Shown here: positions 9,001 to 12,000 of the stretch, piece after piece
Layout of the letters: every line of letters starts with the position of its first letter
Position numbering within the stretch: the stretch's first letter is position 1
Origin: Escherichia coli
GTDB lineage: Bacteria > Pseudomonadota > Gammaproteobacteria > Enterobacterales > Enterobacteriaceae
Assembly: GCF_041248615.1 (NCBI RefSeq)
Contig: NZ_CP158427.1
Length of the DNA: 64,000 bases
Direction: 5' to 3' (one strand)
Made by a program: the position numbers

Positions 9001-12000
9001 CCGGGGCTGACAGTCCACAGGAACTGATGAAAAGGGCAAAGGAGTATCAGGATAAGTATAAGTAATAATGCTGTGTTTGGGAGATGATAATGAGATGTTT
9101 AGCTCATATTGCTCTGGTGACGGTGATACAGTTCATTGCCTGTTATCTGGCTGATTGGGGGAGTGCCGAAACAGTTTTTATCCTGTGCTTTATTGTACTA
9201 TGGCAGGGATTGTTTATATGGTTGTTTTCTCAAATACGAAAAAAACGGCATGTGTCGGATGAGTTTAAATTCAGTAAAGGCGTTTGGTATATAACGATGC
9301 CAGTATCTTCCTTACTCTCTCCGTTATTAAGCCTGATGGTTTTTATCATTGGTACACTATACGAATTAAGGCGAGTTAGTGGTTGCATAAGCATAAAAAA
9401 ATGGGGTCAAAATCAACTCAAAAACCAATATGATGGGAGTGAAAAGTTAGACTTCGGGGGCATTGAACAGCCCCCAACGACCTACTATAACCCTTCAACC
9501 GGATACCCTATGCATGGAGGCTTTGACTCAGCGGGAAATACTTTTGGGACTCGTTGGCAGGATTATTATGACAGGCAATAAGAAAACTGTAGTTTGTAAA
9601 AAAGGTAATTTGATGAAAACAAAAAAATTGATGATGGTTGCACTGGTCAGTTCCACTCTGGCCCTTTCAGGGTGTGGTGCGATGAGCACAGCAATCAAGA
9701 AGCGTAACCTTGAGGTGAAGACTCAGATGAGTGAGACCATCTGGCTTGAACCCGCCAGCGAACGCACGGTATTTCTGCAGATCAAAAACACGTCTGATAA
9801 AGACATGAGTGGGCTGCAGGGCAAAATTGCTGATGCTGTGAAAGCAAAAGGATATCAGGTGGTGACTTCTCCGGATAAAGCCTACTACTGGATTCAGGCG
9901 AATGTGCTGAAGGCCGATAAGATGGATCTGCGGGAGTCTCAGGGATGGCTGAACCGTGGTTATGAAGGCGCAGCTGTTGGTGCAGCGTTAGGTGCCGGTA
10001 TTACCGGATATAACTCAAATTCTGCCGGTGCCACACTCGGTGTGGGCCTTGCTGCCGGTCTGGTGGGTATGGCTGCAGATGCGATGGTGGAAGATGTGAA
10101 CTATACCATGATCACGGATGTGCAGATTGCAGAGCGTACTAAGGCAACGGTGACAACGGATAATGTTGCCGCCCTGCGTCAGGGCACATCCGGTGCGAAA
10201 ATTCAGACCAGTACTGAAACAGGTAACCAGCATAAATACCAGACCCGTGTGGTCTCAAATGCGAACAAGGTTAACCTGAAATTTGAAGAGGCGAAGCCTG
10301 TTCTCGAAGACCAGCTGGCCAAATCAATCGCAAATATTCTCTGATTATCTTCCGGAGGCTGGCCTGACCGGCCTCCTGACTGACGCCTCGCTTTGCTCGT
10401 TGTCCAACCCCGGAAAGAAATAAAATAAATTTTATTTCTCCCCGGCGTTTCCGAAATAAATATGAAAACACTGAGCGGTTGTGCAAATTCTTTGTGCGAC
10501 CGTGAAGTGTTGCCGGCGAAGCCGGAATTTAACGGTTATTAATCTTTTCATCATTAATAATCAGTCCGACTGACTTTTTTTCTTCGGAATATCATCATGA
10601 GTTTTAACGCAAAGGATATGACCCAGGGCGGTCAGATTGCGTCCATGCGTATCCGCATGTTCAGCCAGATCGCCAATATCATGCTTTACTGCCTGTTTAT
10701 TTTTTTCTGGATACTCGTTGGTCTGGTTTTATGGGTAAAAATAAGCTGGCAGACGTTTGTGAACGGCTGTATTTACTGGTGGTGTACCACGCTGGAAGGC
10801 ATGCGGGATTTAATCAAGTCCCAGCCAGTATATGAGATCCAGTATTACGGCAAAACCTTCCGGATGAACGCGGCTCAGGTACTGCATGATAAATACATGA
10901 TCTGGTGCGGTGAGCAGCTATGGTCTGCATTCGTTCTGGCGTCTGTCGTGGCCCTGGTTATTTGCCTGATCACCTTCTTTGTTGTCTCCTGGATTCTGGG
11001 GCGTCAGGGTAAACAACAGAGCGAAAATGAAGTCACAGGTGGTCGTCAGCTGACAGACAATCCGAAAGACGTTGCCCGGATGCTGAAAAAAGACGGCAAG
11101 GACTCCGATATCCGGATTGGCGACCTGCCGATTATCCGGGATTCCGAAATCCAGAACTTCTGTCTGCACGGAACAGTGTCGACGGGTAAGTCAGAGGTTA
11201 TTCGACGTCTTGCCAACTATGCCCGTAAACGTGGCGACATGGTGGTGATTTATGACCGTTCGTGTGAGTTTGTTAAAAGTTACTATGATCCCTCCATCGA
11301 TAAGATCCTGAATCCGCTGGATGCCCGCTGTGCCGCCTGGGATTTGTGGAAGGAGTGCCTGACACAGCCGGATTTTGATAATGTCGCGAACACGCTGATC
11401 CCGATGGGAACGAAAGAGGACCCGTTCTGGCAGGGATCAGGACGTACCATTTTTGCGGAAGCGGCGTATCTGATGCGTAATGACCCCAACCGCAGCTACA
11501 GCAAACTGGTGGACACACTGCTTTCCATCAAAATCGAAAAACTGCGTACCTTCCTGCGTAATTCACCGGCGGCCAACCTGGTGGAAGAGAAAATTGAGAA
11601 AACGGCGATTTCCATCCGTGCTGTGCTGACCAACTACGTGAAAGCCATCCGTTACCTGCAGGGGATTGAGCATAACGGTGAACCCTTCACCATACGTGAC
11701 TGGATGCGGGGTGTCCGGGAAGATCAGAAAAACGGCTGGCTGTTTATCTCGTCAAATGCCGACACTCATGCCTCCCTGAAGCCGGTGGTTTCCATGTGGC
11801 TGTCCATTGCCATTCGTGGGCTGCTGGCAATGGGAGAAAACCGTAACCGTCGTGTGTGGTTTTTCTGTGATGAGTTACCCACGTTACACAAACTGCCGGA
11901 CCTGGTGGAGATCCTGCCGGAAGCCCGTAAGTTCGGAGGCTGTTATGTGTTTGGTATCCAGTCCTATGCCCAGCTGGAAGATATCTACGGTGAGAAAGCG

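Follow-up and report, generated by a model that had tools for sequence, protein, structure and literature searches.

The closest described systems to the element reported here are the ssi/pas sites (the ColE1 rri sites, F ssiA and the R1 G-site) and Frpo, the single-strand promoters in the leading region of F, all of them short orientation-dependent hairpins that act on the T-strand or on the lagging-strand template. In Enterobacterales, resistance and virulence genes are carried mainly by plasmids of the F type. It is an open question how the entering F-type strand is converted to duplex and in which order its genes can come to be expressed (PMC9849209). The element that we describe shares the short, orientation-dependent hairpin design of these sites and occurs twice in the 64-kb stretch of Escherichia coli DNA analyzed here (the window). 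Our main reading, to which we give a probability of roughly 0.35, is that it acts as a signal in single-stranded DNA, similar to sites of priming or primosome assembly.

Architecture and distribution of the element

The initial annotation had described a hairpin element of roughly 85 bp, repeated after traT and after a DUF2726 gene, with conserved flanks and a differing central hairpin. Both copies were recovered at these sites: GTTGTCCAACCCCGGAAA occurs exactly twice (10399-10416 and 22361-22378; 0.05 occurrences expected by chance), CCCGGCGTTTCC is found at 10441-10452 and 22404-22415, and a covariance model trained on copies from other plasmids matched the minus strand at 10380-10450 (63.2 bits, E 1e-15) and 22340-22413 (100.6 bits, E 2.5e-26). 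The covariance-model scan of the 64 kb gave no copies beyond these two, and a motif search of F, pSLT and the window added nothing to the covariance-model matches. Pairwise alignment of the two copies likewise bore out the conserved flanks around different central hairpins. The repeated unit is discrete as claimed, but its length needs correction: since the similarity of flanks in other plasmids stops exactly at CTGACGCC and at GCGTTTC, the unit, which runs from CTGACGCC to CCGGCGTTTC, is about 72 to 75 nt long rather than 85. In copy 2, the stop codon of the DUF2726 gene (TGA, 22341-22343) lies inside the element.

Table 1. Features of the window that bear on the two element copies
Feature	Position	Strand	Remarks
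traT	9613..10344	+	Pfam TraT, E 6.5e-83; annotated homologue; start inferred from the 732-bp F traT
GC-rich hairpin right after the traT stop codon	10354..10376	+	GGAGGCUGG-CCUGA-CCGGCCUCC
Element copy 1 (traT-type)	10380..10451	-	between traT and traD; the folded strand is the minus strand
3' domain, copy 1	10380..10398	-	degenerate short hairpin and invariant terminal GGCGTCAG
Linker GGACAAC, copy 1	10399..10405	-	unpaired, invariant; GTTGTCC on the plus strand
Long hairpin H2, copy 1	10406..10449	-	AAC.CCGGGGAGAAAUAAAA-UUUA-UUUUAUUUCUUUCCGG.GUU; 19 pairs including 2 G·U
traD	10597..12795	+	Pfam TraD; starts 145 nt after copy 1
DUF2726 (yihA) gene	21753..22343	+	Pfam DUF2726, E 1.3e-21
Element copy 2 (yihA-type)	22340..22414	-	between the DUF2726 gene and copB/repA2
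3' domain, copy 2	22340..22360	-	short hairpin ACGC-GAAG-GCGU, terminal GGCGTCAG
Linker GGACAAC, copy 2	22361..22367	-	invariant
Long hairpin H2, copy 2	22368..22412	-	AAC.CCGGGAGCGGGGAAAA-CUUGC-UUUUUCCCGUUUCCGG.GUU; 19 pairs including 3 G·U
copB/repA2 of the IncFII replicon	22583..22843	+	Pfam RepB-RCR_reg, E 6e-45; starts 168 nt after copy 2
CopA RNA	22960-23050	-	Rfam scan
DnaA box TTATCCACA of oriR	24169..24177	+	read directly from the sequence
Two perfect Ter consensus sites	24399-24412; 24535-24548	-; +	right of oriR; blocking faces towards each other

Members of the family are about 70 to 77 nt long and share one plan, namely, a 19- to 20-bp hairpin, an unpaired GGACAA, a short second hairpin and a terminal CGTCAG. 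The sequence of the long hairpin covaries freely, and GGACAA is invariant and unpaired. The full linker GGACAAC is unchanged in all 38 aligned variants, and GGACAA is retained even in the divergent members, which otherwise have the architecture alone in common. Across variants the stems are continuous over 16 to 20 bp save for one G·G mismatch, with a single bulge in a few; the minus-strand loops are mostly YUNR-like (CUUG, CUGG, CUCG and UUUA), and a closing helix GAC/GUC of the 3' domain is predicted on the family alignment. Since one natural variant (L112) is missing the long hairpin, the traT site at least can do without the element. The GC-rich hairpin at 10354-10376 is a separate feature outside the element, with a wobble pair (U·G) on the plus strand, opposite to the element; a Klebsiella copy (L032; cluster U8) has a different yet still paired sequence at the equivalent position.

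The suggestion that the element is duplicated in the plasmid backbone holds. It belongs to a family of conserved structured elements that is large, lacks annotation and occurs on IncF-type plasmids across Enterobacterales. It is carried by 2,577 of 5,426 complete E. coli genomes, nearly always on plasmids (3,016 plasmid placements against 19 chromosomal ones), with one to three copies per plasmid. Phage origin was rejected, as none of 50,697 phage records matched. A full-text literature search with element sequence strings and related topics returned no description of it.

In every context examined, a co-oriented operon lies 25 to 190 nt downstream: traD-traI, copB-repA-oriR, parAB, hok or a PLD nuclease gene. 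Several of the downstream genes begin 25 to 40 nt after the element, which leaves no room for a promoter, and the plus strand must therefore be read through. On its other side the element follows traT, DUF2726, DsbA and other genes, and its TGA is the stop codon of several upstream open reading frames. A position just 3' of plus-strand genes, initially noted for the two window copies, is shared by most members but not by the parA subfamily, in which the element precedes parA and does not itself follow a co-oriented gene. We also considered the element as a part of the hok/srnB module and rejected this: F srnB is without it, and homology sets in some 45 nt downstream, close to the TGGTATTAT promoter.

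The fold is conserved on the minus strand

Selection maintains the fold of the minus strand, which is antisense to the flanking genes. Compensatory double changes were found at 14 of the 21 predicted pairs among 18 diverse members, and the stem cells of the minus strand comprised 396 G-C, 308 A-U and 74 G·U pairs with a single A·C. Scored on either strand, 93.7% of the cells are paired on the minus strand versus 83.0% on the plus strand, G·U accounts for 52 versus 3 cells, and the pair positions with G·U number 9 versus 3. All 10 sequence clusters gave the better fold on the minus strand (G·U 20 versus A·C 0), and DNA energy parameters returned the same preference. The two window copies behave alike, with folding energies of -47.6 (minus) versus -37.4 (plus) kcal/mol for copy 1 (10345-10470) and -42.5 (minus) versus -30.9 (plus) kcal/mol for copy 2 (22330-22440); in the long hairpin of copy 1, the G·U pairs turn into A·C mismatches on the plus strand. 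Conservation of the paired structure is a property of the minus strand; read as plus strand, the stems contain A·C mismatches.

Copies within one replicon are co-oriented, including both copies of the window, the three in pSLT and those of other multicopy contigs. One of the three pSLT copies lies 40 kb away, upstream of parA, and all three are complementary to the tra, ssb and psiB genes. This co-orientation is confounded by conserved synteny and by the mostly uniform orientation of backbone genes.

Leading-region and tra genes share one orientation, and the T-strand is the strand from which leading-region genes are read (PMC11541004). We infer from this that the folded strand and the T-strand, the one passed to the recipient in conjugation, are identical. 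The Ter trap beside oriR (Table 1) suggests that the folded strand would also be the lagging-strand template of the IncFII replicon. Tus-Ter arrest is polar in an established way, and the polarity of these sites points to a leftward direction of the fork. Intact copies are present on non-conjugative plasmids (a pLVPK-like plasmid, pO157 and pCROD1), which disfavors a purely conjugative role but not a role on the lagging-strand template.

A candidate single-strand signal and competing explanations

In the scenario that we prefer, the element acts as a folded single strand, shown above to be the one complementary to the neighboring mRNAs. The 19- to 20-bp hairpin would stay folded in SSB-coated DNA, where a host or plasmid protein may recognize it together with the unpaired GGACAA and the terminal CGTCAG, perhaps as a signal of the single-strand initiation or primosome-assembly type. 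A strand begun at the element would extend in the plus direction, so that it would run through the operon just downstream, and the downstream genes would be made duplex early. As no promoter is conserved, an RNA would need chance antisense transcription, whereas single-stranded DNA needs none. The up to four G·U pairs per stem speak against a DNA signal, since they suit RNA better, and the classical ssi screens of F and R100 reportedly found no sites here. Some variants contain the hexamer AAGCGG (GGAAGCGGGG), which we take to be the primosome-site hexamer, but it is not conserved.

This opens the way for a broader and more tentative proposal, one that we regard as possible though doubtful: F-like plasmids may carry dispersed hairpin signals on the T-strand (and lagging strand), each upstream of an establishment or maintenance operon, where host enzymes start the complementary strand so that these operons become duplex and expressible first. 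To our knowledge, F-like plasmids encode no primase. If the proposal is true, the element would define, next to Frpo, a second kind of single-strand signal that had gone unrecognized and that about half of sequenced E. coli carry.

A family of transcription terminators, as initially suggested, found no support in that form. A consensus terminator scan of 9900-10900 and 21900-22900 called neither copy on either strand, because the U-run is absent: the plus-strand tail reads CGUUUCC and the minus-strand tail GGGGUUGGACAAC, neither of them a canonical U-tract. As the hairpin is moreover not conserved on the sense strand, where 83.0% of cells pair against 93.7% on the minus strand, the element is not a canonical Rho-independent terminator and is probably not a simple transcription stop signal. 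It resembles such terminators in being a stable intergenic hairpin, usually just after a stop codon, with a weakly U-rich plus-strand tail (GUUUCU), but differs from them in lacking a U-run on both strands, in a structure conserved antisense to the genes, and in the invariance across genera of its sequence outside the stem, which is not normal in terminators.

A weaker form of this idea, which we consider unlikely, makes the element a leaky plus-strand terminator, an insulator or an mRNA 3' stabilizer. The weaker plus-strand hairpin with CGUUUCY would then stop or attenuate transcription from upstream genes such as traT and the tail of the tra operon, with a predicted termination point at ...CCGGCGUUUC, and dosage-sensitive genes (copB-repA, parAB, hok and a nuclease) would be shielded with partial read-through allowed. 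The position of most copies just 3' of plus-strand genes and the use of the TGA to end several upstream reading frames agree with such a role, as do the mild U-richness of the tail GUUUCU(U), plus-strand hairpins that still reach -11 to -30 kcal/mol and the harm that read-through into the downstream operons would do; a 1987 paper on F traS/traT names "terminator activities" in its title. Yet neither copy is called by the terminator scan, G·U pairs would be harmless to a plus-strand hairpin but are nearly absent there (3 versus 52 cells), genes that start 25 to 40 nt downstream need read-through, and no co-oriented gene precedes the copy of the parA type. RNA-seq of pBIC1a shows a decrease in signal past traT; we do not count it as evidence, since no element copy follows traT in the related IncFIIK plasmid pBK32179 and the decrease is not attributable to the element.

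The second initial suggestion, a small-RNA scaffold, fared no better as far as a dedicated small RNA is concerned. Rfam gave no match at either site at the gathering threshold (in E-value mode, chance hairpin matches fell far below it), no promoter-like site was found upstream on the minus strand at either copy, and comparison of flanks across plasmids revealed no conserved sequence beyond the element where a promoter could sit. An antisense small-RNA gene of the FinP/CopA type was rejected for the same lack of its own promoter and of conserved flanks and for the missing U-tail. A FinO ligand was also rejected: FinP and RepX make up >99% of FinO-bound small RNAs in Salmonella with pSLT, and therefore the element yields no abundant FinO ligand. 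With FinP-type antisense RNAs the element has in common two stem-loops, a GACA-containing spacer and the anti-tra strand; it departs from them in having neither promoter nor U-tail, no enrichment with FinO and no Rfam match to FinP.

The fold could still serve as a minus-strand RNA structure within antisense transcripts, be they spurious or read-through from promoters of the CopA or Sok type, although we think this quite unlikely. The hairpin would be a barrier, a pause site or a site of RNase III cleavage and would shield the upstream genes from antisense RNA, and the mismatched plus version would spare the sense mRNA. The asymmetry of G·U and A·C, with up to four wobble pairs per stem, obeys the rules of RNA pairing, the continuous 19- to 20-bp helix has the size of an RNase III substrate and the YUNR-like loops fit too; AS-traG, AS-traI, AS-pc02 and CopA all have Rfam matches in the window. 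Against this stand the missing minus-strand U-tract after either hairpin of the E. coli-type copies, a promoter neither conserved nor predicted, the near monopoly of FinP and RepX on FinO and an orientation that varies with respect to genes (antisense to traD and repA2; sense to and upstream of a resolvase or Rpn gene; sense to and downstream of an Rpn gene).

The least probable of the readings that we weighed, and a very unlikely one, is that the element marks junctions in the manner of REP or attC, as a small palindrome, mobile or recombinogenic, that acts as folded single-stranded DNA and where backbone gene modules change places. The boundaries of the element are sharp, roughly 10 upstream and 10 downstream independent contexts are variously combined, gene-element-gene-element arrays occur in L051, L035 and L023, and the element sits at the 3' ends of open reading frames, to which it sometimes gives the stop codon; bottom-strand folding recalls attC, and GTCCAAC fits the attC R'' consensus RYYYAAC. 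However, the 3' box GTTTCYN does not fit GTTRRRY, there are no extrahelical bases and no target-site duplication, no integrase or RAYT is consistently nearby in the contexts examined and a plasmid has just one to three copies. Many seemingly different flanks are, moreover, diverged versions of one locus (e.g., the starts of hok and PLD), and homologous recombination in a conserved 75-nt sequence would give the same mosaics. Three further identities were discarded. For a Tus-Ter site, GTTGTCCAAC differs from GTTGTAAC, and the genuine Ter sites are found at 24.4-24.55 kb; TTGTCCAAC agrees with a DnaA box at just six of nine positions; and a pseudo-nic site for TraI had no convincing match, oriT itself being outside the window.

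The single-strand signal that we favor has the merit of being a concrete and easily deleted candidate, as a conserved strand-specific element directly upstream of replication-control, partition, toxin and coupling-protein operons. Even as an insulator or attenuator, the element would mark junctions where backbone modules swap. It merits annotation and an Rfam-style model.

Comparison with known systems

Integron attC sites and the element are alike in several ways: both lie at the 3' ends of co-oriented genes without promoters, both have conserved ends around a variable palindromic center, and in both the functional fold is on the bottom strand and AAC/GUU pairs close the stem. The element is not one of them, since its 3' end GTTTCYN fails the R' box GTTRRRY and AAC/GTT alone pair. 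It differs further in its nearly perfect stems without extrahelical bases and in the absence of IntI and attI, no intI integrase or attI having been found in the annotated neighborhoods examined.

REP/BIME elements are, like the present one, discrete imperfect palindromes with G·T or G·U mismatches, placed in transcribed intergenic regions and at operon junctions, sometimes by stop codons. They are expected in many chromosomal copies and in both orientations; the element is confined to plasmids (19 of 3,035 E. coli placements are chromosomal), with one to three co-oriented copies per replicon. It also has twice the length of a REP and no GTAG foot. No RAYT (TnpA-REP) is annotated near the copies examined.

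There are also differences from the known single-strand signals, of which the absence of a -35/-10 mimic and of a conserved CTG counts against the priming reading. The element is much shorter than Frpo and carries no -35/-10 mimic: the 3' arms of its stems, which are 19 to 20 bp long and variable in sequence, hold no conserved TATAAT- or TTGACA-like pair. Unlike G4-type primase sites, it has no conserved CTG, and we know of no ssi class with the invariant motifs GGACAA and CGTCAG. It also lies in the tra-distal, replicon-proximal backbone and not, as Frpo does, in the leading region. Nevertheless, as with Frpo, a presumptive T-strand hairpin lies 25 to 190 nt upstream of co-oriented genes, and as with ssi and primosome sites, a strand-specific structure occupies the strand that, as T-strand and lagging-strand template, would be exposed single-stranded. 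Like both, finally, the element is intergenic, near and upstream of the genes or origins that it would serve, with little consensus in primary sequence beyond short motifs.

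A minus-strand fold shared by two copies

Our data confirmed that the two stretches which the initial annotation had described as a repeat with conserved flanks and a different central hairpin are present as claimed. The 64 kb contain the word GTTGTCCAACCCCGGAAA at two places only (10399 and 22361; 0.05 expected by chance), both copies close with CCCGGCGTTTCC, and pairwise alignment shows conserved flanks around unrelated central hairpins. A covariance-model search of the window returned these two copies only. Both also lie 3' of plus-strand genes, as had been stated, copy 1 after traT and copy 2 after the DUF2726 gene (Pfam), whose TGA stop codon is at the copy 2 start.

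Strand-specific folding on the minus strand is our main result. Every variant has its more stable hairpin on that strand, the difference typically being 7-17 kcal/mol, and DNA energy parameters give the same direction. Minus-strand stems contain 396 G-C, 308 A-U and 74 G·U pairs and one A·C; in an ungapped alignment the minus strand has 93.7% of its cells paired and nine pair positions with G·U, the plus strand 83.0% and three G·U cells. When variants are grouped into sequence clusters (<85% alike), 10 of 10 favor the minus strand (20 G·U, 0 A·C). Since single stem positions switch between G-C, G·U and A-U, both arms mutate, and with the A·C class missing this means selection on minus-strand pairing, not mutational bias alone. 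Mere weakening of the plus-strand hairpin would tolerate plus-strand G·U, which is almost absent. The conserved pairing envisaged in the initial annotation is therefore there, but on the strand antisense to the genes.

The pattern is reversed in the separate hairpin adjoining the traT stop codon: here the plus strand carries the wobble, as expected of a sense-strand mRNA hairpin; it is probably the actual traT mRNA 3' hairpin, distinct from the element. A Klebsiella copy has a different yet still paired sequence at this position.

Features of the window
Feature	Coordinates	Strand	Remarks
Copy 1	10380-10451	-	TraT, copy 1, TraD (Pfam)
Copy 2	22340-22414	-	SNase, Hha, DUF2726, copy 2, CopB/RepA2, CopA RNA, IncFII RepA (Pfam for proteins)
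traT-proximal hairpin	10354-10376		GC-rich, 9 bp; before copy 1
AS-traG	6965-7050	-	Rfam
AS-traI	15644-15720	-	Rfam
AS-pc02	20651-20834	-	Rfam
CopA	22960-23050	-	Rfam
traD tandem repeat	12439-12525		Seven 9-bp units (CAGCCGCAA), encoding Gln/Pro repeat near C-terminus
oriR DnaA box	24169-24177		Read in the window
Ter site	24399-24412	-	Perfect consensus
Ter site	24535-24548	+	Perfect consensus
300-nt direct repeat	2256-2555 / 29359-29658; also 2770-2789 / 29873-29892		87% identity, 27.1 kb apart
Block of large co-oriented ORFs	31-42 kb		Second such block, after 300-nt repeat; possibly second transfer or secretion cluster
137-nt direct repeat	45140-45276 / 52014-52150		Perfect/near-perfect; probably insertion-sequence or transposon ends
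105-nt direct repeat	54125-54229 / 57217-57321		As preceding row

A discrete and widespread plasmid unit

In other plasmids, homology on both sides stops exactly at CTGACGCC and GCGTTTC; because the flanks become unrelated exactly at both ends, the element is a discrete unit. Species-representative genomes and metagenomes were each scanned once with a pattern, which for the metagenomes covered the 5' part alone. The two scans yielded 147 occurrences with 42 distinct sequences between them, in Escherichia, Klebsiella, Enterobacter, Kluyvera, Pantoea, Erwinia, Izhakiella and other hosts, and the 3' part was present in all of them, though not demanded by the metagenome pattern. Upstream genes (traT, DUF2726, a DsbA gene, a 102-119-aa ORF and others) and downstream genes (traD, copB/repA2, hok/srnB loci, a phospholipase-D nuclease gene, a 337-aa gene) occur in varied pairings. 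Some seemingly different flanks are diverged forms of one locus, and we therefore put the independent contexts at about 10 per side.

The traT-traD spacer matched 3993 records and the type of copy 2 at least 5000 PLSDB records; 2577 of 5426 complete E. coli genomes carry the element, with 3016 plasmid and 19 chromosomal places. No match was found in 50,697 phage records, no annotated feature underlies the plasmid-record matches, and a literature text search with the sequence returned no description. The element is thus a structured, strand-specific repeat, widespread on IncF-type plasmids yet unannotated. Other F-like plasmids carry it at the same positions, a check that the initial annotation had proposed: F between traT and traD, pSLT there and upstream of repA2.

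A covariance model built from 23 variants found a single copy in F and, among the other loci searched, divergent members sharing almost no stem sequence and having the same architecture: 5' RAAYC, a 19-20-bp hairpin, GUU and then GGACAA, a short second hairpin, and at the end CGUCAG, in which GUC is able to pair with GAC from GGACAA. The second hairpin covaries (GCC/GGC, AUCCGGC/GCCGGAU, GCCC/GGGC, CUCC/GGAG), and RNAalifold on 18 diverse members recovered both helices, with compensatory double changes in 14 of 21 pairs. In 1897 plasmid records, among them the virulence plasmid of Salmonella and plasmids of Yersinia pestis, P1-type parAB is preceded, at a distance of about 147 nt, by a member of a parA-type subfamily. 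A further member is flanked by convergent Rpn and integrase genes and belongs to a virulence-type Klebsiella plasmid that is non-conjugative.

Several loci deserve separate mention. Rpn-family (PD-(D/E)XK) nuclease genes neighbor the divergent members at L162, L164, L169 and L170; the arrangement takes three forms (upstream, two genes away, downstream), and the association could be coincidence. The parA-type copy of a non-mobilizable Y. pestis plasmid (L163, 2505-2571) has a 3-nt deletion in the long-hairpin 3' arm and a GGAUAA linker, which may reflect decay in a non-conjugative lineage. A traT-traD variant (L112, metagenome contig ERZ1031078.177, minus strand from 6202) lacks exactly the long hairpin (CCCCGG joined to AAATAAAT), as though slippage between CCGGAAA and CCGAAA had deleted it. 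About 55 nt past the element, the conserved part of srnB/hok begins at an extended -10-like TGGTATTAT (L002, about 1620-1640; L161, about 2770-2790); plasmid F has the same hok locus without the element. F (NC_002483.1; L160, 41966-42591) and pSLT (L166, 39491-40116) also have an opposite-strand vapBC toxin-antitoxin pair annotated between traD and traI; in the window traD abuts traI (12795) without this insert.

Terminator and RNA readings

The terminator or small-RNA scaffold suggested by the initial annotation survives in part: the element is a structured repeat at gene ends, but a terminator scan gave no call for the two copies on either strand, and the element matches no Rfam family and lacks a promoter. 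A canonical terminator was rejected on the scan and on tails without a proper U-run (minus strand GGGGUUGGACAAC; plus strand CGUUUCC, mildly U-rich at most). The steep RNA-seq drop after traT in pBIC1a is unusable as terminator evidence because in pBK32179, a related IncFIIK plasmid, traT is not followed by a copy. Elsewhere in the window, the Rfam matches above gathering score (AS-traG, AS-traI, AS-pc02, CopA) show that antisense RNAs described for plasmid pHK01 are conserved.

Several downstream genes start 25-40 nt past the element with only a ribosome-binding site between, so the plus strand must be read through; the parA-type copy has zero co-oriented genes upstream. A leaky plus-strand attenuator, or an insulator shielding dosage-sensitive operons, is an unlikely explanation of such a site. 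We give still less credence to an RNA structure of the minus strand that serves antisense transcripts as a barrier or RNase III site: wobble-rich stems are more RNA-like than DNA-like, but a single-stranded-DNA signal fits better than RNA, since the fold is strand-specific, the unpaired short motifs are invariant and a promoter is absent, and since the family is plasmid-confined with copies on one replicon strand whatever their neighbors' orientation.

A possible single-stranded-DNA signal

Conjugative transfer begins at nic and proceeds 5' to 3' into the leading region. In F and pSLT, leading-region genes (ssb, psiB) and tra genes are co-oriented, and it is the transferred strand that serves as template for the leading-region genes (PMC11541004). 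It follows that the T-strand is complementary to the tra mRNAs and corresponds to the window minus strand. All three pSLT copies lie on it (upstream of repA2, at traT/traD, and upstream of parA 40 kb away), and copies are co-oriented in every two-copy contig, although this co-orientation is confounded by synteny. The two Ter sites, about 230-370 bp right of oriR, have blocking faces towards each other, and by Tus-Ter polarity form a fork trap; a productive IncFII fork should thus exit leftwards, implying unidirectional replication, and the minus strand would also be the lagging-strand template.

We tentatively propose, with a probability of roughly one in three, that the element is a single-stranded-DNA signal of the single-strand initiation or primosome-assembly kind. 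Synthesis begun there would proceed in the plus direction and run through the operon always just downstream. Against this stand the wobble-rich, RNA-like stems, the intact copies retained by non-conjugative plasmids, the synteny that confounds co-orientation and the natural variant without the long hairpin (L112). We consider a recombination or mobility element of the REP or attC kind improbable: gene-element-gene-element arrays were found, but no attC R' box, no extrahelical bases and no integrase.

For none of the families tested does the element show the full set of defining features. It resembles known single-strand signals and extragenic palindromes, and the known class with its properties is that of single-strand initiation and primosome-assembly signals, together with Frpo.
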